Source: an uncultured Gammaproteobacteria bacterium (GTDB lineage Bacteria; Patescibacteriota; Patescibacteriia; Magasanikbacterales; GWA2-37-8). Taken from it: 64,000 nt of DNA. Both the position numbers and the translations under genes were made by a program. Shown here in pieces: positions 4,519 to 27,792 of this stretch. Within the stretch, counting starts at the first letter, position 1; each line of letters begins with the position of its first letter. The stretch is from positions 10,548-74,547 of the forward strand of contig CAZXML010000002.1 of the NCBI GenBank assembly GCA_964641245.1, read 5' to 3'. The notes under the pieces were generated by a model, which saw only the letters and a list, made by a program, of their open reading frames with translations, was not told where the DNA came from and made no database searches.

Positions 4519-4636
4519 TATAATCGCCTCCTCCCCTCTTTTAGGGGGAGGGCAGGGTGGGGGTATTGGTTGTCTGGTGTCCAGTGTCCGCGATAACCCC
4601 TCTCTCTGTCTCTCCCCTAAAAGGGGAGAGAATGAC
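4519..4636. repeat. family E GC-rich palindromic element (cctcccctNNNNggggagg ... ctctcccctaaaaggggagag)
   Basis: copies at 11786-11897 (inside O-antigen-ligase-like ORF) and 22534-22632. Confidence 0.8.
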
Positions 4637-5722
4637 TGAAGCCAGCCCCGCACTAGTGTATCTATTCGACGCATTCCACATCAGCCAACCGGCATCAGTG
4701 TATTTTTCTGTTTCATCTATCTGCGCTCTGATTTTTTCAGCATCATAAACCGCTCCCAGGTTAAACGCCTGAATCCACGGGCGTACTTTGGCGCGTTTAC
4801 CTTCAAATTTTGGCATTCCCATTTGCATACCGTTGGCAAACACTTTGGCCGGAAATTGAGCCGGATTTTTTAATCCTAAATGGCCGGGCGGATAATGCGA
4901 CGGATACATCATGGGCGAAATATAATCCGTTTCATCCACCGCGTCGGCAATCCTCTGCCCGATGCGCATATCATCCTCGCCTTTTTTTTCCATAACAAAA
5001 CCAAACATATCCAGCGATAACCAAACCGGCTCGTCGCTTAATTTAATATTTAAAAAATGATAAAACTGTTTCATTACCAGATACTTTTTTTCATTGCCGG
5101 CGGCATAAACCGCCTGAGACATATTTCCATCCGAAGGAAAACGAACATAATCAAAATTGATTTCATCAAAACCAAAAGCGATCGCTTCTTTGGCGATAGC
5201 CACATTATATGCCCAAACTTCTTTTTTACTCGGATCAACCCAGGCCAAACCTTTGTGATCTCTCCACAAACCGCCCGATTTATTTTTTATCGCCCATTCC
5301 GGTTTTTTTTCGGCCAGCGCCGGATCCTGAAATACCGTTTGGCGCGCGATTACATAAATATTTTTAGCGTGCAGTTTTTTTATCAAAGCCGCCACATCTC
5401 CCAAACGATTTTCGTCTGTTTTTAAATCATTCACTAATTTTAATTTGCTGTCATACAAAATTTTTCCGCTGTAATCTTTGATGTCTATTACCACCGCGTT
5501 CAATTCGGTTCTGTCTATCAAATCTATGATGGTGTCTATTTTTTTGGCGCTGCCGGCCGAATAGGCCGTGAGGTATAAGCCTTTAACTTTTATGAGTGTT
5601 GATTTTTCTATTCCCGACTTGAGCGGAATAGAGGTGGGTTGGCCTGTTATATCAACGCTGGAAGCTTCTATAGTCTGAACAGTTTCTGTCCAAGCCCACC
5701 AAATTAAAAACGAACAAAGCAA
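4541..5722 (-). CDS. putative TIM-barrel glycoside hydrolase-like protein (DUF4015/GHL-type), TTG start uncertain
   Basis: 393-aa ORF; FDYVRFP and NVAIAKEAIAFGFDEINFDY motifs reminiscent of DUF4015/GH114-like; C-terminus reads into GC-rich palindromic repeat 4519-4636. Confidence 0.4.
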   Translation of the reverse strand: MLCSFLIWWAWTETVQTIEASSVDITGQPTSIPLKSGIEKSTLIKVKGLYLTAYSAGSAKKIDTIIDLIDRTELNAVVIDIKDYSGKILYDSKLKLVNDLKTDENRLGDVAALIKKLHAKNIYVIARQTVFQDPALAEKKPEWAIKNKSGGLWRDHKGLAWVDPSKKEVWAYNVAIAKEAIAFGFDEINFDYVRFPSDGNMSQAVYAAGNEKKYLVMKQFYHFLNIKLSDEPVWLSLDMFGFVMEKKGEDDMRIGQRIADAVDETDYISPMMYPSHYPPGHLGLKNPAQFPAKVFANGMQMGMPKFEGKRAKVRPWIQAFNLGAVYDAEKIRAQIDETEKYTDAGWLMWNASNRYTSAGLASVILSPFRGETERGVIADTGHQTTNTPTLPSP

Positions 5723-5799: not shown

Positions 5800-6468
5800 T
5801 TAAATTATCTGAAGTTGTCCCTGGCGTAAAATTTTTAAATTATCAATCACGCTCACAATGGTGGTGGGCGGATTTTGGGGTAATATTCCCCCATCTATTA
5901 GTATATCAGGTTTTACATTAATTTTCTTGGAGTCATAGATATCGCCAGCATCGGCCAAGTTGGCTGAAGTAGCTACCACCGGTCTGTCTAATTTTTCCGA
6001 TAAAAATTTTGCTATTGGGTGATTGGTAACACGGACGGCAATTGTATTGTTTGCGGCGACTACGCCGGCTGCCAGGCTGTCATTGCGAGGAAGCCGATTC
6101 GCATCGGCTGACGTGGCAATCCCATTGTTTGCACTACCATCCAATGGGATTGCTTCGTCGCTTGTAGCTCCTCGCAATGACAAATACTCGCCAACTATTG
6201 TAAGCGCCCCAGGCCAATACTTACTTGCCAAATCTTCCAACAAATCGTTCCACAACAAATATTTTTTTGCCATTTCAATCGTGGGCACAACAACCAAAAG
6301 AGGCTTATCGCTTTTTCGCCCCTTAATTTCAAAAATTTTATTTACCGCGTTTTGATCGGTCGCATCACAACCCAAACCATAGGAAGTTTCGGTGGGAAAA
6401 ACGATAACCTTTCCTTCCTTCAGATATTCAACGGCAGTTGATAATTGTTTAGTGGTTATTATTTTCAT
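5800..6468 (-). CDS. tsaC: L-threonylcarbamoyladenylate synthase TsaC/YrdC, with in-frame palindromic-element insertion
   Basis: VFPTETSYGLGCDA, KGRKSDKPLLV, PGALT motifs; ~35-aa insert SLRGATSDEAIPLDGSANNGIATSADANRLPRNDS encoded by repeat 6078-6182; upstream ATG at 6549 lies inside repeat 6477-6561. Confidence 0.8.
   Translation of the reverse strand: MKIITTKQLSTAVEYLKEGKVIVFPTETSYGLGCDATDQNAVNKIFEIKGRKSDKPLLVVVPTIEMAKKYLLWNDLLEDLASKYWPGALTIVGEYLSLRGATSDEAIPLDGSANNGIATSADANRLPRNDSLAAGVVAANNTIAVRVTNHPIAKFLSEKLDRPVVATSANLADAGDIYDSKKINVKPDILIDGGILPQNPPTTIVSVIDNLKILRQGQLQII
6078..6182. repeat. family C palindromic element (tgtcattgcgagg...ggcaatcccattg...gggattgcttcg...ctcgcaatgaca) inside tsaC
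   Basis: other copies 10416-10503, 21735-21823, 45966-46054; partial 17871-17900. Confidence 0.85.
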
Positions 6469-6476
6469 ACTTTGAT

Positions 6477-6561
6477 TGTCATCCTGAATGCAATGAAGGA
6501 TCTCTGTCCGTATCGTTTTGGACAGCCAGACAGAGATTCTTCGCTTCACTCAGAATGACAG
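6477..6561. repeat. family B palindromic element
   Basis: see 3812-3890. Confidence 0.85.
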
Positions 6562-6581
6562 TTAGAGAAACCAAAATTTTT

Positions 6582-7694
6582 TTATTTCTTAATCCAACGC
6601 AAATACGCCTCACCGAGCGGCAACAAATTTCCTTCCAAAACACCTTCCGGATCCGTGGATTCGTATTCGGTGCGGTGATCTTTTACCAAATGATACGGAT
6701 GCAAAACATAAGAACGGATTTGATTGCCCCATTCCGCTGATTTATATTCCCCGCGCAATTCTTTTCTTTCCGCGGCTTTTTTTTCTTCTTCCAAACGGTG
6801 CAAGCGCGCTTTCAAAACTTTCATGGCCATGTCTTTATTTTGCTGTTGCGAGCGTTCGTTTTGGCATTGCACGGTAATGCCGGTGGGAATATGCACAATG
6901 CGCACGGCCGAATAAGTGGTGTTCACACTTTGCCCGCCGTGCCCGCCGGCCATAAAAGTGTCTATGCGGATATCTTTGGAATCAATTTCAATTTTTATTT
7001 CATCATTTATTTCCGGCAAAACTTCTATTAAAGCAAAAGAAGTATGACGCATTTTTTCCGCATCAAACGGCGAAATACGCACCAGGCGATGCACGCCGTG
7101 TTCGGATTTTAAATAACCAAAAGCAAAACGCCCTTTGACTTCAAACATAATGGATTTATAACCCGCTTCCGCCCCGCGCGATTCGTCTACCACTTTTGTT
7201 TTCCAACCCATTTTATCGCAATACCGCATTACCATCCGCAACAGCATTTCGGCCCAGTCTTGCGCTTCGGTACCACCACTGCCGGCGTGGATAGCAATGA
7301 TGGCATTATTTTTATCATACGGACCGTTTAACAAAACATACAATTCGTATTCGGAAAATTCTTTGGCAACTGTTTTGGTTTGCTGTTCTATTTCGCCGGA
7401 CAATGATTCATCCCCGGAACTTGCTTGCCCCGCCGTGGCGGTGGATAATTCAATTAAATCATTTGTTCTTTTTTCCAAATCCGCAAATTTTTCCACTTCT
7501 TTTTTTATATCCTGATAATCCTGGGAGGTAGCCTGCGCGTTTTCCTGATTACTCCAAAAATCCGGCGCGTTCATTTCTGCAGCCAGCTGTTCCGATTTTT
7601 TTTGCAATTCATCTATATTAAGAAGTTTTTTTGTTTCGGAAATTTTGGATTGCAGTTCTTTCAAATCTTCTAAAGACATACCCTTAATTGTCAT
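6582..7694 (-). CDS. prfB: peptide chain release factor 2
   Basis: 370-aa single ORF; SPF tripeptide (RISPFDA) and GGQ motif; no +1 frameshift site needed. Confidence 0.9.
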   Translation of the reverse strand: MTIKGMSLEDLKELQSKISETKKLLNIDELQKKSEQLAAEMNAPDFWSNQENAQATSQDYQDIKKEVEKFADLEKRTNDLIELSTATAGQASSGDESLSGEIEQQTKTVAKEFSEYELYVLLNGPYDKNNAIIAIHAGSGGTEAQDWAEMLLRMVMRYCDKMGWKTKVVDESRGAEAGYKSIMFEVKGRFAFGYLKSEHGVHRLVRISPFDAEKMRHTSFALIEVLPEINDEIKIEIDSKDIRIDTFMAGGHGGQSVNTTYSAVRIVHIPTGITVQCQNERSQQQNKDMAMKVLKARLHRLEEEKKAAERKELRGEYKSAEWGNQIRSYVLHPYHLVKDHRTEYESTDPEGVLEGNLLPLGEAYLRWIKK

Positions 7695-19380: not shown

Positions 19381-22300
19381 CTATACAACAATACTCACCA
19401 ATTTTCCTTTTACGTAAATTATTTTCTTCGGTTCTTTGCCGTCCAGCCATTTTTGGACTTTCTCACCGGCCAGCGCTAATTTTTTAATTTCCTCTTCCCC
19501 CATTTCCGCCGCCACTTTAATTTCATCACGGACCTTGCCGTTAATTTGCACGGCCAAAGTCATGGTGCTTTCTTTGGTCAGTTCCAAATTATATTCCGGC
19601 CATGGTTCGTATACCAGTGTTTTATTATTACCCAAAGTATTCCACAGTTCTTCGCACATGTGTGGGGCAAAGGGAGAAAGGATTTTGAGGAGTGAGGAGT
19701 AGTGAGTAAGGAGTATTGATTCCTGCTTGGACATTTCGTTTACCAATTCCATCATTTTAGCAATGGCGGTATTAAATCGCATGGCTTCGATATCATCTCC
19801 AACTTTTTGAATTGTTTGATGGAGCAGTGTAGTCAACTTGTCATTCTGAGGTGTAACCGAAGAATCCCTTTTGTCCGACAGAGAGGGATCCTTCACTTTG
19901 TTCAGGATGACAACGTTGCTGTCCGACAGTTTATCTTGCAACAGCCACACTCTATCCAAAAATCTTTTAACCCCAACTACTCCATTCGTATCCCACTCCA
20001 CCGCCTGATCAAACGGACCCATAAACATTATATATGTACGCAAAGCATCCGCGCCGAATTTTTCTACCATTTCGTCCGGATTGACAACGTTGCCTTTGGA
20101 CTTGGACATTTTTTCTCCGCCTTTGGACAGAATCATTCCGTGCGCCGTGCGTTTGGCGTATGGTTCGGAGTGCGGCACCAAACCAATGTCGTGCAAAAAG
20201 ATATTCCAAAAACGGGAATACAATAAATGCAAAACCACATGTTCCATTCCCCCGTTATACCAATCCACCGGCATCCAGTATTTTAATAATTCTTGATTCC
20301 AATAATTTTGATTTTTGATTTTTGATTTTTGACCTCCGAGCGCGTATGCAAGGTAATACCAGCTGGACCCGGCCCAGTTCGGCATGGTGTCGGTTTCTCG
20401 CTTGGCCGGACCGCCACACTTTGGGCATTTGGTATTAACCCATTTTTCCATTGCGGCCAGCGGCGATTCGCCCGTATCGGTAGGCTGATACTTTTTTACC
20501 TTTGGCAATTCTAAAGGCAATTCACTTTCCGGCAATGGAACCCAACCGCAATCCGGACAATTTACTAAAGGAATCGGTTCGCCCCAGTAGCGTTGGCGGG
20601 AAAATACCCAGTCGCGTAATTTGAATTGCACTTGCGGTTTACCGCCGACAAATTCAATAATCTCCGATTTTGCTTTTTTGGAATCCATTCCGCTAAACTG
20701 TCCGGAATTAACTAACTCGCCGGATTCGGTAAATACTTGCGTTCCGAAAATCTTATTAATATCTGTCGATTCTTTTAGAACCTGATCTTCCGGCAACAAT
20801 TCCCGTAGCGCGTCATACCCGCAATAACCCCAAGCGCAACCAATTAACTTTTTACGGTCCATAAAATTTTCCAACTCATAGACATCGGCCTTGGAGTCCG
20901 TAAAATAATAGACATCGCTCACTTTAATTCCCCAGTCTTTGCAAACCATTTCTATTTTTTCTTCTTTGGAATGATGGTCTTCAAAAGAAAGAACATGCGT
21001 CGGATTTAGACCGGTCTGCTGACTTCTCTCCCGCATATAAAGTCCGGACCCGGCGGAAATCACCGCAATTTTTGTATTTGGTATATTTTTTACCAGGCCG
21101 ACAAATTCATCAAACAGCGGAAAATTAATTTTTGCCATATGCTCGCCAAATTTTTGTGTCCATTCCAGATTTTTTTTCACTTCTTCTTCGGATAAATTAT
21201 GCCCTCTCGTATGATTAGGCTTCCTGCTAAAATACTGGTTAATTGACTCAACCGCTTCTTCTCTGTTTTTTACATCGCCCATTTTTAGTCTGGTCACAAT
21301 TGAAGCCTCGTACGTATCTCCAAGCACTCCATCAAAATCAAAAATTAAATACTTAGGTTTTTGTTCTTTGGAACGCACTACTTCCACAATCGGCAAACCA
21401 AATTTTTTGGCAAACTCATAATCACGCTCATCGTGCGCCGGCACGCCCATAATGGCGCCCGTGCCCACTTCGCCCAAAACATAATTTGTTATCCAAACCG
21501 GAACTTCTTTTTTTGTGGCCGGATTTACCGCTTTAACTCCGGCGTCCACTCCGGTTTTGGCCATTTCTTCTCTGGTGGTGGCGGCCGCGCGCTCGGCAAT
21601 TGTTTCTTCAATATATTTTTTAACTTCTTCACTTGCTTCCCAACCGCCATCCAGCCATTTTTTTGCCAACTCGGCCGAAATAGCGACAAAGGTCGCGCCA
21701 AAAATTGTGTCGGGACGGGTGGTAAAGACTTCGATGTCATTGCGAGGAGCCAAAGGCGACGCGGCAATCCCATTGTTAGTACCACCAGTACTTTGGGATT
21801 GCTTCGCTTTGCTCGCAATGACAAAATGAATAAGCGCGCCTTCCGAACGTCCAATCCAATTTTCCTGCTGTACCCGCGCGCGTTCTATATAGTCTACATT
21901 TTTGAGTCCGGCCAAAAGTTTATCGGCGTATTTGGTAATGGCCAGCATCCATTGTTCTTTATTTCTTTTTTCTACCGGTGTACCACAGCGTTCGCAGCAG
22001 CCGTTAACCACCTCTTCGTTGGCCAAACCAATTTTATCTTTGGGACACCAATTTATAGGCTGATTTTTTTTGTATGCCAGGCCATGTTTAAAAAATTGTA
22101 AAAAAAGCCACTGCGTCCATTTATAATATTTGGGATTAGAAGTATCTACAGTCCTGGACCAATCAAAACTATAACCCAACATTTTTAACTGGCGCGTAAA
22201 ATTGGCAATATTTTTCTTGGTGACTTCCGCCGGTTGCTTGCCGGTTTTAATAGCGTAATTTTCCGTAGGCAAACCAAAAGAATCAAAACCAATCGGAAAC

Positions 22301-22521
22301 AAAACATTTTTGCCGTCCATTCTTTTTTTTCGGGAAATTACATCCATGGCCGTAAAAGGCCGCGGATGGCCCACGTGCAAACCCTCGCCACTAGGGTAAG
22401 GAAATTCTATCAGCGAATAAAACTTTTCCTTGTCTTTATCTTCTGTAACTTCAAAAGTCTTATGGCTCTCCCAATACTTTTGCCATTTCTTTTCTATTAA
22501 CTTAGGATTATACTTTTTCAT
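19381..22521 (-). CDS. leuS: leucine--tRNA ligase with three in-frame insertions (family C element, HAD-like domain, family B element)
   Basis: HVGH (HIGH), editing-domain VFTTRPDT and GTGAIMGVPAHDERDYEFA, KMSKSKGN; 1046 aa vs typical 800-880. Confidence 0.93.
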   Translation of the reverse strand: MKKYNPKLIEKKWQKYWESHKTFEVTEDKDKEKFYSLIEFPYPSGEGLHVGHPRPFTAMDVISRKKRMDGKNVLFPIGFDSFGLPTENYAIKTGKQPAEVTKKNIANFTRQLKMLGYSFDWSRTVDTSNPKYYKWTQWLFLQFFKHGLAYKKNQPINWCPKDKIGLANEEVVNGCCERCGTPVEKRNKEQWMLAITKYADKLLAGLKNVDYIERARVQQENWIGRSEGALIHFVIASKAKQSQSTGGTNNGIAASPLAPRNDIEVFTTRPDTIFGATFVAISAELAKKWLDGGWEASEEVKKYIEETIAERAAATTREEMAKTGVDAGVKAVNPATKKEVPVWITNYVLGEVGTGAIMGVPAHDERDYEFAKKFGLPIVEVVRSKEQKPKYLIFDFDGVLGDTYEASIVTRLKMGDVKNREEAVESINQYFSRKPNHTRGHNLSEEEVKKNLEWTQKFGEHMAKINFPLFDEFVGLVKNIPNTKIAVISAGSGLYMRERSQQTGLNPTHVLSFEDHHSKEEKIEMVCKDWGIKVSDVYYFTDSKADVYELENFMDRKKLIGCAWGYCGYDALRELLPEDQVLKESTDINKIFGTQVFTESGELVNSGQFSGMDSKKAKSEIIEFVGGKPQVQFKLRDWVFSRQRYWGEPIPLVNCPDCGWVPLPESELPLELPKVKKYQPTDTGESPLAAMEKWVNTKCPKCGGPAKRETDTMPNWAGSSWYYLAYALGGQKSKIKNQNYWNQELLKYWMPVDWYNGGMEHVVLHLLYSRFWNIFLHDIGLVPHSEPYAKRTAHGMILSKGGEKMSKSKGNVVNPDEMVEKFGADALRTYIMFMGPFDQAVEWDTNGVVGVKRFLDRVWLLQDKLSDSNVVILNKVKDPSLSDKRDSSVTPQNDKLTTLLHQTIQKVGDDIEAMRFNTAIAKMMELVNEMSKQESILLTHYSSLLKILSPFAPHMCEELWNTLGNNKTLVYEPWPEYNLELTKESTMTLAVQINGKVRDEIKVAAEMGEEEIKKLALAGEKVQKWLDGKEPKKIIYVKGKLVSIVV
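20737..21375 (-). other. HAD-superfamily hydrolase-like domain inserted in-frame in LeuS (residues ~383-595)
   Basis: motif I LIFDFDGVLGDT, motif II-like IAVISAGSG, motif IV-like FTDSKADV; flanked by canonical LeuS segments FAKKFGLPI (end of CP1) and KLRDWVFSRQRYWGEPIP. Confidence 0.6.
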
Positions 22522-23470: not shown

Positions 23471-25486
23471 TTATTCTAGGATCAACTTCTTCTCCTTTTC
23501 TTCTTCCACGAAAGCTTCCAGCACATCGCCGACTTCCAATTTTAATTTTCCGTCAAATTGCAAACCGCCTTCGTTTCCTTCCGGCAATTCGTTAACTGTT
23601 TGCTTTCCGGATTGCAGTTGAGGAATTTTTCCCATACCAACCACTTCTCCGTTACGGCGCACGCGCGCCTGGGCGTCTTTTTTTAATTTACCGTCTTCCA
23701 CCCGGCCGCCCACAATCATGCTATTTTTGGTGGTGCGGAAAATATTGGAGACGCGCATTTTGCCGAGTTCAATAATAATTTTTTCCGGATTAAGCAGTTT
23801 CTTTAGTTCCGCTTTTACAAAATCCAGTAGGTTATAGATTACACTAAATTGCAAAAATTGTATATTTTTATCCTGAATCATGTTTTGCGCGGTGGTGGCG
23901 GGAGTTACATTGAAGCCGAAAATTATGGCGTGAGCGGTTTCCGCTTTAGCCACATCATCGGCGGTAATATTTCCTAAACCCTTGCCGATTATCCGCACTC
24001 CCACTTCATCATTTTTTATTTTTTCTAAAGAACCGATTATCGCTTCCAGCGAACCCAAAGTATCGGTTTTAATCACCAGATTTAAAACTTTCTTTTTTTC
24101 TTCTTCTTCCACATCGGCGGAAGCGGAAATAACTTTTTTCTCGGCGCCGGATTGTTTATTTCTTTTTTCTTTTAAATTAATGCCGGTGGCTGTGGCCGCG
24201 CTGCCCACATCCAAAATATCTCCGACTTGCGGGGCAACTTTAAAACCTAAAATTCGGACCGGACAACTTGGCCCCGCTTCTTTTAAATTTTCTCCCTTAT
24301 AATTTTTCATGGCGCGCACTTTGCCGTAAATTTCGCCGTTCACAACTAGCGGATCATTTAATTTTAAAGTTCCGGTTTGCACCAACACTGTGGCGACCGG
24401 CCCTTCGCCTTTGTCTACGTGCGCTTCGATGACCGTACCCGCGGCCGCTCTGTCCGGATTGGCTTTTATTTCTTCCGCGTGCACATCGGCCACCAATAAT
24501 AAAACATCTAAAAGTTTATCTATATTTAAATTTTGTTTGGCGGAAATTTCTACCATCGGCACTTCCCCGCCCCACTCTTCGGCTTGAATTCCGTGTTGAG
24601 ATAAATCCGCGCGCACTTTTTTGGCATCGGCGCCTTCTTTATCTATTTTATTTATCGCCACTACCACCGGCAATTTAACCGCTTTAATAATATTTATTGC
24701 TTCTATGGTTTGCGGTTTCACACTATCATCCGCGGCCACCACCAACACGGCAATATCGGCCACTTTAGCGCCACGCCCACGCATAACCGTAAAGGCTTCG
24801 TGGCCCGGAGTGTCTATAAAAGTAATGGGAGATTTTTCTTTTGTTTTTGGATTTGTCCAAACCACTTGGTACGCGCCAATGTGCTGGGTAATACCGCCGG
24901 CTTCCTGGCCCATCACATTTGCACTTCGGATAGAATCCAGCAATTTTGTTTTTCCGTGGTCTACGTGCCCCATCACTACTATAATAGGAGGACGCGCCAC
25001 CACGGCATCATCGGTTAAAATATTTTCTAAATTATCTACATGTTCGGTGGATTCCTCTTTTGCTTCTGTTTGTGTTTCCGCGATGGAAAACCCTAAATCC
25101 TGCGCCACCAGCACCGCTGTATCATGATCTATATTTTCATTTTGAGTAGCTAGAATTCCGTTCTTCATGAATTCCATTATTAGTCTTGTAACCGGCACCT
25201 GCAATAAATCCGCCAGTTCGCGGACGGTAATTTTGTTTGGAAGCGAGACGCTAACACCGCTACTTTGGCGCGCTTCTTTTTCCAGTTCTTTTTGTTTTTC
25301 TTTTTCTCTTTGTTCTTTTTCTTCTATTTGAGATTTAATCCGTTTCCACTGCCGGATTATCTGTTGCGCCACCCGGTCGTCTACTTTTATAGACTTCGCG
25401 CCCACATCAAAACCAAACTCCGGCAAAATTTGCAAAAGTTTTTGAGGGTGGATTTTGAGTTGTCGGGCTAGTTCGGAGACGTTCAT
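23471..25486 (-). CDS. infB: translation initiation factor IF-2
   Basis: G-domain [22 protein letters not shown]; 671 aa. Confidence 0.95.
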
Positions 25487-25542
25487 ATGTTTAAGTATTC
25501 AATATTATACTGCATTAAAATCCATAAGTCAATTAGAAACCT

Positions 25543-25571
25543 TGACAAAATACAAAAAATACCCTATAATC
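25543..25571 (+). promoter_or_regulatory. consensus sigma70 promoter TTGACA-17-TATAAT
   Basis: exact TTGACA (25543-25548) and TATAAT (25566-25571) with 17-nt spacer; followed by inverted repeat cctctctag/ctagagg (possible operator) and the GC-rich ORF. Confidence 0.6.
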
Positions 25572-25616
25572 CTCTCTAGTTAGAGGATTGTCCTCTAGAA
25601 ATGGAGAGTCGGGAAA

Positions 25617-25967
25617 ATGGAAAAGATGGCGAGGTCAAACGGCACCACGAAGCGCGGAACGCACCACCAGCCGGAGATCGTCACCCAGATCATGTTGTGC
25701 CGCAAAGACCAGCTACCCGCCTGCCAAGACCGACTGGTGGAAGTCGTCTACCACGGAGGATCTCTGTACTCCAGCTGGCACATCTTTACCAAAATGCGCC
25801 GGCAGTTCCAGAAAAAGTTCGGCCACCCCATTCCGGGGGTCACCGACACCTACGAAGGTCCAGTGCGAACCAGGTTGAATGTCAACCAGTTCATCGATGG
25901 TTCAGCCGGAGAGGAGCTCTGGTGGGTTTTCATCCGCATCGTGCTCAAGGACGAAATCGTTCACTAG
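25617..25967 (+). CDS. hypothetical protein in GC-rich (~55-58%) island
   Basis: 116-aa ORF with balanced composition; the two overlapping ORFs in other frames are Arg/Pro/Ser-rich artefacts of high GC; GGAGAG RBS 9 nt upstream. Confidence 0.45.
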   Translation: MEKMARSNGTTKRGTHHQPEIVTQIMLCRKDQLPACQDRLVEVVYHGGSLYSSWHIFTKMRRQFQKKFGHPIPGVTDTYEGPVRTRLNVNQFIDGSAGEELWWVFIRIVLKDEIVH

Positions 25968-26098
25968 CTCCTTCCTACACCCAGCCAAAGAACTGCCGCC
26001 CGGCGGTTCTTATTACTTATCCACACCCTCTAAATCTTTACAAAACATTCTTTTTATAATACAATCTGGTTCATCAAACAACCTTGAGGGGGTGGAAA

Positions 26099-26434
26099 AT
26101 GAAAAAACTCGTCAAAAAAATTGCGATTGTGCTGATGAATGAAACTCGGTATCAAGAACGAGAAGATTTTTTCCATCACATAATTAAGCGGCTACAAACT
26201 CACCGGTGCACCCCTGTCCCCGGCTTCTACTTCAAAGACAACTCACCCACCATTGAAGCCGTGTTTGATGTTGGTATTTTTGTAGAATCAGTTTTAGATA
26301 AAAACGATGGACTTGTCCAAATTACCATTGTCTGCCGCGCCCTACATCTTCGGGTTGAAGATCTGTGCCAATATTTACCGCCCAGTTCCGTGCCAAAACT
26401 TCTGGCCAAAATAGCCGGCCAGCCGAATTCTTAA
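26099..26434 (+). CDS. hypothetical protein (second gene of GC-rich cassette)
   Basis: 111 aa from ATG 26099 preceded by GAGGGGGTGG RBS; followed by intrinsic terminator. Confidence 0.45.
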   Translation: MKKLVKKIAIVLMNETRYQEREDFFHHIIKRLQTHRCTPVPGFYFKDNSPTIEAVFDVGIFVESVLDKNDGLVQITIVCRALHLRVEDLCQYLPPSSVPKLLAKIAGQPNS

Positions 26435-26477
26435 GCTGCTCTTTATATCATCATATCATCGGCCAACAGTCAAAGAA

Positions 26478-26506
26478 CCCCGACCTAGTCGGGGTCTTGT
26501 TATTTA
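26478..26506 (+). terminator. intrinsic terminator
   Basis: ccccgac-cta-gtcgggg hairpin followed by tcttgttattt. Confidence 0.65.
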
Positions 26507-26576
26507 TACGAAATTAACGCACAATGATACAGTGTCGCATTTCAATGGACGTTACGCGGCATGATTTCGTTAAATC

Positions 26577-27560
26577 ATGGAAAATTTTTTACTCATAAAT
26601 AAACCGGAGGGCTGGACCAGTTTTGACGTGGTTGGTTTTGTGCGGAAAAAATTGATGAACGAACAGGCCAATTCACCCCTACCCCGCGCGTCGTCGTCAA
26701 AGCCTTTGGCGACGTACGACCCAAGCGGGGAGTTAACGAAACGAATTGAAAAACAAAAGCGAATTAAAGTCGGCCACGCCGGCACTCTGGATCCTTTTGC
26801 TACGGGACTTTTAATTGTCGGTGTTGGGCGCGAGGCCACAAAAAAACTGGATGAATTTAAAATGATGCCCAAAACTTATGTGGCTACGATTAAGCTGGGC
26901 GAAGTTTCGGATACGTTTGATCGCACCGGACACATCACAATTTGTCATCCTGAATTTATTTACAAGTCGAGCGAGAGAAGAGTAAATTTATTTACTCTTC
27001 CGAGCGAGCGACGTAAATATGTATTAAACTATATTTCAGGATCTGTCGACAAGATGCTGAAACAAGTTCAGCATGACAATAAACAAATACCGGAACTAAA
27101 ACAAATAAAAGAAGTCATAAAATCATTCACCGGCAAGCAAAAACAAATCCCGCCGATGTTTTCGGCTAAAAAAATAAACGGCCAGCGTTTGTATGATTTG
27201 GCCAGAAAAGGAATTACTGTGGAAAGGCAACCAAATGAAATAGAAATTTATGACATTAAAATATTAGACTATCCCGATTTCGGTGCGACCGAAATCGCGG
27301 ATCCTCGATTTTGTCCCGATTCCGCTTTGGTGCGGAATCGTGGATCCTCGATTTTCCGCGAAGGAAAATCGGGACAAAATCGGGACACTTGGCCTTTTTT
27401 GAAAATTGAAGTACAATGTTCAGCAGGTACCTACATCCGTTCTCTGGCCGATGATATAGGGAGGAAGCTGGAAACTGGAGCTTATTGCGACCAGTTGGTG
27501 CGCACTAAAATTGGAGAATACACACTAGATAAAGCGCTTAATATTAATAATTTAATCTAA
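26577..27560 (+). CDS. truB: tRNA pseudouridine(55) synthase TruB carrying three in-frame inserted elements
   Basis: KPEGWTSFDVV, catalytic GHAGTLDP, TruB C-terminal region; 327 aa vs usual 230-300; inserts at ~26650-26750 (GC-rich), 26943-27079 (family A with nested family D), 27296-27388 (family G). Confidence 0.85.
   Translation: MENFLLINKPEGWTSFDVVGFVRKKLMNEQANSPLPRASSSKPLATYDPSGELTKRIEKQKRIKVGHAGTLDPFATGLLIVGVGREATKKLDEFKMMPKTYVATIKLGEVSDTFDRTGHITICHPEFIYKSSERRVNLFTLPSERRKYVLNYISGSVDKMLKQVQHDNKQIPELKQIKEVIKSFTGKQKQIPPMFSAKKINGQRLYDLARKGITVERQPNEIEIYDIKILDYPDFGATEIADPRFCPDSALVRNRGSSIFREGKSGQNRDTWPFLKIEVQCSAGTYIRSLADDIGRKLETGAYCDQLVRTKIGEYTLDKALNINNLI
26943..27079. repeat. family A element with nested family D element, in-frame inside truB
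   Basis: tgtcatcctgaatttatttacaag[tcgagcgagagaag...ttccgagcgagcgacg]...caggatct...gatgctgaaacaagttcagcatgaca. Confidence 0.8.
27296..27388. repeat. family G element (atcgaggatcc/tcgattttgtcccgat type) in-frame inside truB
   Basis: related copies 12908-12953 and 27988-28053. Confidence 0.7.
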
Positions 27561-27564
27561 AAGT

Positions 27565-27792
27565 ATGCCAAAACCAAAACAAGAAGCTACACTCGATCCG
27601 TGGATTATTGAAGAAATAAAAAGGAAGAAGCAGGAGAAAGAAGAGAGAGAAAGAGAAAAACAACCGCAAATTGACCTGCCGGAAAACGATATGCCCTACC
27701 ATGACCCCGAAGAAAGAAGAAGATGGGAAGAAGAGGAAGAACGAAAGAGAAAAGATAGTCCGGGAGGCGTAGAAAAAATAGATTTGCTCTAA
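27565..27792 (+). CDS. small highly charged hypothetical protein
   Basis: 75-aa K/E/R-rich ORF starting 5 nt after truB stop. Confidence 0.25.
   Translation: MPKPKQEATLDPWIIEEIKRKKQEKEEREREKQPQIDLPENDMPYHDPEERRRWEEEEERKRKDSPGGVEKIDLL

Follow-up and report, generated by a model that had tools for sequence, protein, structure and literature searches.

In Escherichia coli and Bacillus subtilis, the classical nusA-infB-rbfA-truB operon places the small gene rbfA between infB and truB. In this study, we analyzed the interval between the same two genes in a 64-kb stretch of DNA (hereafter the window; ~41.5% GC) from an uncultured groundwater member of Candidatus Magasanikbacteria (Patescibacteria/candidate phyla radiation, CPR). 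The studied span, positions 25543-26506, contains two small open reading frames (ORFs), designated ORF1 and ORF2. The explanation that we consider probable is that these are two independent monocistronic genes placed between the divergent infB and truB promoters, and that ORF1 belongs to an old, GC-rich, slot-fixed family that occurs only in Magasanikbacteria. Two other types of described systems are relevant to this locus: aquifer Patescibacteria contain many genomic islands, with most transfers occurring within the phylum (PMC12455944), and 5′-terminal stem-loops, or 5′ stabilizers, are documented mRNA-stabilizing elements (reviewed in PMC3997798).

By ORF calling, infB occupies positions 23471-25486 on the minus strand and truB positions 26577-27560 on the plus strand, leaving a divergent spacer of 1,090 bp. 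Because infB is on the minus strand, both units described below sit in the divergent infB/truB spacer. The closest infB relatives of the window were all found in metagenome-assembled genomes from Candidatus Magasanikbacteria. ORF1 resembles rbfA in that it belongs to the class of ~110-130 amino acids (aa), lies between infB and truB and is next to translation and RNA-modification genes. Unlike the rbfA arrangement, however, infB is divergent and not co-transcribed at the ORF1 locus, and ORF1 appears dispensable and hypervariable. RbfA (PF02033) was not matched at E ≤ 1 by any of 15 family members, and no KH-like fold was found in PDB (none at E < 0.4).

The first unit extends from 25542 to 26011 on the plus strand. 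It begins with an exact TTGACA-17-TATAAT promoter (25542-25570, 12/12 in the promoter scan), which is back-to-back with the infB promoter TTGACT-17-TATAAT (25504-25532, minus strand, 11/12). It then contains a 5′-terminal stem-loop, TTAGAGGA-TTG-TCCTCTAG (25580-25598), predicted by RNAfold and by comparison with relatives; a Shine-Dalgarno (SD)-like GGAGAG, read from the sequence at 25603-25608, 8 nt before the ATG; ORF1 itself (25617-25967, 116 aa, isoelectric point (pI) 9.3, GC 0.564, GC at third codon positions (GC3) 0.77); and an intrinsic terminator with a 10-bp stem, AAGAACTGCC/GGCGGTTCTT, detected by scanning at 25988-26011. In relatives of ORF1, GGAGA or GGAGG was present at the same spot, and an equivalent hairpin with a T-run followed the family gene. 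The second unit, also on the plus strand (26037-26495), has a promoter-like site, TTTACA-17-TACAAT (26037-26065, 10/12), followed by ORF2 (26099-26434, 111 aa, GC 0.435, GC3 0.43) and by an intrinsic terminator with an 8-bp stem, six G-C pairs and a T-run (26477-26495).

The terminator at 25988-26011 and the second promoter-like site at 26037-26065 separate the two ORFs, which therefore form two transcription units and not one cassette. In addition, the same terminator-box-promoter arrangement was present between the ORF1 and ORF2 genes in two related loci, L073 and L074 (related loci carry L numbers throughout). An initial annotation of this DNA, made from its letters, had described a two-gene cassette with a perfect promoter, an inverted repeat and a clean terminator. 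The promoter, the repeat (TTAGAGGA/TCCTCTAG), the second ORF of 111 aa and the self-contained nature of the signals were all verified, each unit having its own promoter and terminator. The clean terminator was also located, at 26477-26495, but it is one of two, the other one lying immediately after ORF1. The pairing of the genes itself did not hold, given their separate promoters and terminators and the fact that ORF2 was missing from most ORF1 loci.

These observations bear on the function first suggested for the span, that of a recently acquired two-gene addiction, defense or regulator cassette whose promoter carries an operator. ORF1 and ORF2 do resemble type II toxin-antitoxin and other small defense pairs in being adjacent, small, fast-evolving and patchily distributed, and rapid evolution with patchy distribution is typical of conflict genes. 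The compositional outlier, the self-contained signals and the presence of two neighboring small ORFs of unknown function are also in line with such a cassette. However, unlike toxin-antitoxin genes, ORF1 and ORF2 are neither co-transcribed nor co-inherited, ORF2 has a normal GC content, and homology to toxin-antitoxin or defense families was absent. No match for either family was found in PADLOC, Pfam, NCBIfam or PHROGs; specifically, no toxin or antitoxin fold or family was identified for ORF1 or ORF2 in Pfam, NCBIfam or PADLOC, no PDB fold was identified for ORF1, and no PADLOC-DB model was matched at E ≤ 1 by ORF1, ORF2 or four distant ORF1 homologs. The cassette is further opposed by the age and fixed synteny of the ORF1 family and by the inverted repeat, which behaves as an RNA stem, as discussed below. 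We regard it as very unlikely.

Before the coding status of ORF1 was assessed, we tested the possibility that its unit specifies an RNA. A structured non-coding or dual-function RNA gene with an incidental ORF would fit the occurrence of a GC-rich block with all frames open within an AT-rich genome, as well as the promoter-to-terminator layout of ~440 nt, which is reminiscent of small RNAs. Within the close clade, substitutions were nearly even over codon positions and nucleotide identity exceeded amino acid identity. Moreover, L006 has an in-frame stop with downstream sequence conserved nonetheless, and in L009 a transcribed unit persists without an ORF. However, neither the window nor any of 10 related loci contained an Rfam 15 match that reached the gathering score; the matches at E ≤ 10 were at chance level, the only one in the ORF1 body being a 34-nt CRISPR-DR (E = 3.3). 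ARAGORN found no tmRNA in the window. The fold of the ORF1-unit transcript had a z of only -1.84 relative to shuffles, and shuffling of synonymous codons gave z values from +0.6 to -2.8 in nine family members, similar to those of five control genes, with no consistent excess of structure. On all of these counts, an RNA gene was rejected as the primary identity of the unit.

Analysis of substitutions pointed to a protein instead. Long ORFs were present in all three forward frames over the GC-rich block (25588-25878, 25601-26059 and 25617-25967), as the initial annotation had stated, and the choice it made among them was supported. The ratio of nonsynonymous to synonymous substitutions (dN/dS), calculated by the Nei-Gojobori method and calibrated on neighboring genes (infB dS of 0.65-1.0, the lineages compared being close), was lowest in the 25617-25967 frame, with values of 0.41-0.51 versus 0.7-0.94 and 1.06-1.47 in the other two. 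This was also the sole frame that stayed open in relatives, down to 25-35% identity. The peptide block CRKDQLPACQDRLV was invariant, and its codons varied almost solely at synonymous third positions. Together with a confident protein model, these patterns argue that ORF1 is a genuine protein gene, and an RNA gene with an incidental ORF is hardly credible as an account of unit 1.

Homologs of ORF1 with 63-69% identity were identified, and when 1.84 billion representative proteins were searched with a profile, 13 family representatives were recovered with E values of 1e-5 to 1e-64. Members of the family are 104-140 aa long and share a common core, LY..WH.F..hRRQF..KFGRPhPGVTD.YEG.VRT.F. They are soluble proteins, and 15 of 16 have a basic pI of ~9-9.8. 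With 11 diverse sequences as input, AlphaFold2 produced an α/β model of ORF1 with a mean pLDDT (the program's per-residue confidence measure) of 78 and a core above 90. Searches against Pfam, NCBIfam, PADLOC and PHROGs gave no match for ORF1, ORF2 or distant members, weak matches were never common to members, and a sequence-profile search of PDB gave nothing better than E > 0.3; thus, the statement that neither protein is recognizable was correct. In the literature, we found no description of the ORF1 family or of the infB-adjacent GC hotspot described below. Judging from these comparisons, ORF1 appears to found an undescribed family of small basic proteins restricted to Magasanikbacteria.

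One additional protein, P0021 (1152 aa, with peptidoglycan-binding repeats), was retrieved at E = 1e-5 through six FQ..GL..G..D-like repeats and was set aside as a motif coincidence. A back-translated scan of metagenome contigs and a DNA scan with the leader motif revealed no further family loci. We also observed that JGI/IMG is the sole recorded source of the exact 116-aa ORF1 product, and Logan that of a 113-aa version; for ORF2 and TruB of this contig, NCBI is named among the sources as well. GenBank annotation may have missed or mis-framed the compositionally atypical ORF1.

The inverted repeat downstream of the ORF1 promoter had been viewed as a possible operator, but its evolution is better explained at the RNA level. 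RNAfold predicted an 8-bp stem (-8.6 kcal/mol) beginning ~2-3 nt after the transcription start predicted from the -10 element. The stem core, AGAGG/CCTCT, was conserved in 10 lineages, while the spacing of its arms varied from 5 to 11 nt and its extensions covaried (TTAGAGG/CCTCTAA, CCGGAGG/CCTCTGG and TAGAGGG/CCCTCTA). In a register-anchored count, 86% of stem cells were paired compared to 32-57% in slid controls; four of nine stem pairs changed on both sides, G·U pairs were used, and the covariation score was reached by none of 500 shuffles. Variable arm spacing, G·U pairs and covariation are more readily reconciled with a 5′-terminal RNA stem-loop than with a DNA operator, in which the spacing of the arms would be fixed. 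The element resembles the 5′ stabilizers of the E. coli ompA/papA type and of B. subtilis (PMC3997798) in its position a few nt from the predicted 5′ end, in the strong SD that follows it and in its conservation with covariation across the family. Unlike these stabilizers, its 5′ arm is SD-like (AGAGG) and its 3′ arm is anti-SD-like (CCTCT), which hints at an additional role in translation.

Occurrence of the ORF1 family was strictly linked to one genomic position. In every member with retrievable context, a divergent infB is followed by the family gene and then by truB, the latter two in the same orientation, and no member with known context was found outside this slot. Occupied slots were seen in L003-L006, L007/8, L020/L067, L068, L069-71, L072 and L075; in L073 and L074, which are short contigs, the family gene is followed by an ORF2 homolog. 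The family spans nine Magasanikbacteria lineages, with identity decreasing to ~25-35%, and all members have a TTGACA-17/18 promoter (with TATAAT, TAATAT or TAAAAT as the -10 element), stem-loop, SD and terminator. The AAGTCAA motif of the infB promoter was invariant in all relatives, whether their slots were occupied or empty.

Empty slots were detected in ~10 species representatives of Magasanikbacteria, in which infB and truB are separated by an AT-rich spacer of only 71-224 bp with only two promoters. In these spacers, the infB promoter is followed, after ~10 nt, by a TCTTGTCC...GCATAAT motif before truB; the ORF1 promoter of occupied slots stands where this truB motif stands in empty ones, and the motif is again seen there downstream of the final terminator. 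TCTTGT(C/T)C...GCA(C/T)AAT was present just 5′ of truB in relatives with empty and with occupied slots, and in the window the corresponding sequence, TCTTGTT...GCACAAT (26495-26525, plus strand), overlaps the tail of the ORF2-unit terminator. This motif had no match in the consensus promoter scan, and its conserved position suggests that it is probably the ancestral truB promoter. Empty slots with bare promoters imply that the ORF1 and ORF2 units are inserted modules relative to the ancestral state, in agreement with the insertion between infB and truB noted initially.

Whether the insertion was recent is a separate question, on which composition had been taken as evidence. The initial annotation gave a GC content of 55-58%; a sliding-window check confirmed the enrichment for ORF1 (0.564 versus 0.415 for the window; z = 3.25 against windows of the same size), which ranks highest among the GC islands of the window, but not for the span as a whole (0.476) or for ORF2 (0.435, z = 0.42). 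Codon usage was also atypical. GC3 of ORF1 was 0.77 versus 0.416 ± 0.06 for 52-56 window genes, and the maximum among the other genes was 0.55, HU and thioredoxin included. The same feature was observed throughout the family: all members had GC of 0.49-0.61 in surroundings of 0.41-0.46 and GC3 of 0.65-0.91 versus ~0.42 in the host, and their codon usage was inverted relative to the host (TTC 0.84/0.19, ATC 0.84/0.18, AAG 0.73/0.19, GTC 0.53/0.12). Since both C and G were raised at third positions, more than selection for NNC "optimal codons" is involved. GC at second codon positions (GC2) was host-like (0.35-0.42), the GC-richness of ORF1 being mainly at synonymous sites.

We further examined the direction of change at third positions by parsimony. 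Changes from G/C to A/T versus the reverse numbered 24:4 for ORF1, 21:21 for ORF2 and 18:27 for infB; the ORF1 skew was the same as that which parsimony bias produced in a simulation at a stationary GC3 of 0.75, and the closest ORF1 pair offers too few sites to polarize the GC3 change. GC-richness common to all members, however divergent, indicates an old property of the gene and locus and not a trace of recent transfer into this genome. The compositional anomaly is therefore real, but the family and locus have had it for a long time, and the idea of recent horizontal acquisition is not sustained for a family that is confined to Magasanikbacteria, occupies the same slot and is GC-rich down to ~25-35% identity. 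Two explanations remain for the cause of this GC-richness, a GC-maintaining force acting on the locus or gene, or capture on repeated occasions from a GC-rich pool as yet unsampled.

The second explanation deserves attention because of the wider behavior of this slot. In 468 kb covering 42 Magasanikbacteria infB loci, approximately 29 of 45 GC islands were located within 1.6 kb of infB on its divergent side. Examples among L009-L063 are L022 4351-4900, L023 3551-4800, L027 1751-3200, L034 2501-4900, L035 1951-4000, L041 2751-4750 and L045 2551-4700. Some of the islands are 1-2 kb long and have a GC content of 0.70-0.74, the genomes around them having 0.44-0.52. Their cargo is unrelated: it includes small ORFs (GC3 0.63-0.92) that have TTGACA promoters of their own, as well as several lipoproteins and an M20 peptidase (GC3 0.93). 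The infB-adjacent slot is thus a phylum-wide hotspot for unrelated GC-rich cargo. It resembles flexible-genome islets, including those of aquifer Patescibacteria (PMC12455944), in having a fixed position, core-gene flanks and variable presence, absence or replacement among relatives, and in carrying small accessory genes of unknown function and atypical composition. Unlike such islets, the slot has no integrase, tRNA gene or flanking repeats, each cargo gene has its own near-consensus host-type promoter, and the ORF1 family persists across deep divergence with its atypical GC3 intact despite expected amelioration.

In a capture scenario, the ORF1 family, like the other GC-rich cargos, would diversify elsewhere, either on a mobile element or among GC-rich organisms, and would be captured repeatedly and recently into the infB-adjacent hotspot of different Magasanikbacteria, its GC content being unameliorated. 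The hotspot with its unrelated cargos, the patchy presence of the family, the bimodal ORF1 identity described below, the self-contained units and the island-rich genomes of aquifer Patescibacteria, with their mostly intra-phylum transfers (PMC12455944), are all compatible with this scenario. However, among 1.84e9 proteins only 13 representatives were found, and all those with known context are from Magasanikbacteria and in this slot. Searches of phages, plasmids and IMG/VR viral contigs revealed no ORF1-family relatives. All members share homologous AT-rich promoter, leader and terminator sequences of the host type, which would have to travel along with the gene, and its GC2 of 0.35-0.42 is host-like, compared to 0.43-0.50 in the larger hotspot cargos. 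Signatures of mobility were also absent from the slot: there was no nearby tRNA gene and no integrase among the called neighbors, and the junctions are promoter motifs, not repeats. Fixed synteny, homologous host-type signals, host-like GC2 and the lack of outside relatives favor long residence over capture, which we consider unlikely.

Several observations weigh against an old, resident and functional ORF1 family, and some of them leave room for gene exchange. Unrelated GC-rich cargos in the same slot elsewhere would allow repeated capture. With infB 91% identical, ORF1 was 30% identical in L072 and 64-66% identical in L004 and L006, and identity was bimodal at equal infB distance (~0.61 or ~0.30); this could reflect allele exchange between lineages, as opposed to strictly vertical descent. 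Other observations concern the importance of the gene. Among species representatives, L009 is the closest (infB 94%); it retains a promoter and a terminator of the ORF1 type (4590-4925, minus strand of the locus), and the GC-rich interior of ~310 nt has no clean ORF and no AGAGG/CCTCT hairpin, only a "WHQTF...RRQR" remnant; it is either a decayed copy or replaced cargo. In L006 (779-1129), an in-frame TAA is present at codon 100 (GAA→TAA), with the last 16 codons conserved and in frame; the gene was truncated recently, is a pseudogene or was misread in sequencing. From such comparisons, the ORF1 gene appears fast-evolving and dispensable, being decayed, truncated or absent in close relatives, and the high dN/dS (0.4-0.8) combined with loss and truncation in close relatives implies that its function may be marginal.

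The same caution applies to what ORF1 does. Foldseek searches with the ORF1 model against PDB and viral models gave best E values of ~0.4-0.9 with TM scores ≤ 0.33, and any functional assignment, with neither sequence nor fold relative to guide it, is a guess. Messenger RNAs of the family are predicted to be more stable than those of controls in a generic sense only (-0.30 to -0.44 versus -0.21 to -0.28 kcal/nt); since no particular mRNA structure is specified by where the synonymous codons lie, the idea of a stable mRNA follows from composition alone.

With long residence of ORF1 as the preferred reading, a working mechanism can be outlined. Synteny, membership in the family, the coding status of ORF1, the conserved expression signals and the pattern of composition are shown by the comparisons above, and the mechanism goes beyond them by inference. 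Unit 1 would be expressed strongly and autonomously from its perfect σ70-type promoter, with the 5′ stem-loop, SD and terminator as further elements. The stem-loop and the GC-rich body may prolong the life of the mRNA under decay of the RNase Y type, and the transcript would be abundant. The basic protein might then act on nucleic acid or on the translation apparatus, a suggestion made because its neighbors include infB, truB and rny.

A broader proposal, which we regard as doubtful, concerns the slot as a whole. Small promoter-equipped genes would be born or captured at the position divergent from infB in Magasanikbacteria, and their GC3 would be held high (up to 0.9 in genomes of ~42% GC) by an undescribed force that could be local, e.g., a recombination hotspot with strong GC-biased gene conversion, or selection in favor of very stable mRNAs that resist RNases. 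Of the products of this process, the ORF1 family would be the longest-lived, its protein being a basic, highly expressed accessory factor with a new fold in the CPR translation/RNA machinery. If the reading of ORF1 that we consider probable is right, one CPR lineage contains an undescribed family of small proteins that has no sequence or fold relatives, is located beside core translation genes and has the hallmarks of strong expression, and it would offer a concrete target for metaproteomics and structural studies in unculturable organisms. By keeping an inverted codon usage over deep divergence at one fixed locus, the family would also be a counter-example to the inference of recent horizontal transfer from atypical GC content. 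The infB hotspot would allow a test, in a natural setting, of whether local composition in bacteria with small AT-rich genomes can be driven by GC-biased gene conversion or by selection at the mRNA level. If GC-richness instead reflects repeated capture, gene flow into Patescibacteria could still be traced with the slot.

Distribution of ORF2 was more limited. Homologs with 60-74% identity were identified, with dN/dS of 0.25-0.36; in L073 and L074, they directly follow the ORF1-family gene, and L003 contains a counterpart with 26% identity. ORF2 was missing from the ORF1-bearing loci L001/2, L006, L068, L069 and L075. These data indicate that ORF2 is a real, lineage-restricted gene of ordinary composition under purifying selection. 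A profile-profile comparison with the ORF1 family yielded P = 5e-4 with a probability of 31%, the single sequence being not significant, so that remote relatedness of the two families is suggestive only. Sequences around ORF2 were also conserved: TTTACAAAACATT... at its promoter-like site was present in L073 and L074, and the ORF2-unit terminator was kept in L006 and L074 immediately 5′ of the truB promoter motif.

Between the two units, on the plus strand and 8 nt upstream of the ORF2 -35 element, conservation revealed a box, TTATCCACACCC (26017-26028), which was kept in all four ORF2-type lineages (the window, L073, L074 and, as CTATCCACACCC, L003/L004). It contains a perfect DnaA-box consensus, TTATCCACA, and this match at 26017, together with a local flip of GC skew, raised the possibility of a replication origin. 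However, the cumulative skew keeps falling past 26 kb, and DnaA-box-like 9-mers are scattered over the window instead of being clustered; an origin was therefore rejected. Counting all 9-mers that differ from TTATCCACA at no more than one position, the window contains more than expected (47 versus 16 ± 4).

Other cargos of the slot were examined as remote members of the ORF1 family, and all scored like negative controls except for the second gene of L067. This gene (6432-6905, plus strand; 157 aa, GC3 0.90) lies directly after the family gene at 6001-6414. In hhalign, the C-terminal half of its product showed similarity to the ORF1 family (probability 66%, P = 6e-5), and on this basis the gene is probably a tandem paralog of the family gene; a 253-aa call on the minus strand (6243-7004) that overlaps it is probably spurious. 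In addition, the opposite flank of infB was found to have a recurrent GC island of its own, at a roughly constant distance (4.4-6.7 kb downstream from where infB starts), in L025 (9251-10300), L036 (10501-11700), L041 (10501-11150), L043 (10451-11400), L044 (10401-10900) and L045 (9601-10050).

Several neighboring genes also had unusual features. The leucyl-tRNA synthetase (LeuRS) of the window (19381-22521, minus strand) contains an inserted HAD-like domain with a weak match to Pfam HAD_2 (sequence KYLIFDFDGVLGDT...), and the LeuRS of L067 (1-3363), longer than 1,236 aa, has NUDIX and α/β-hydrolase matches inside; such domain insertions are unusual for a core synthetase. TruB of the window has 327 aa compared to 220-289 aa in relatives, with two insertions around ...NSPLPRASSSKPLATYDPSGELTKR... 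and ...CPDSALVRNRGSSIFREGKSG..., and its gene has a dN/dS of ~0.25-0.31, which is high for a core enzyme. Directly after truB, an ORF on the plus strand (27565-27792) encodes an extremely charged (K/E/R-rich) product of 75 aa. Genes for proteins of 66-75 aa with no Pfam match occupy the same position in L007, L068 and L069, and the ORF of the window probably encodes a conserved small protein.

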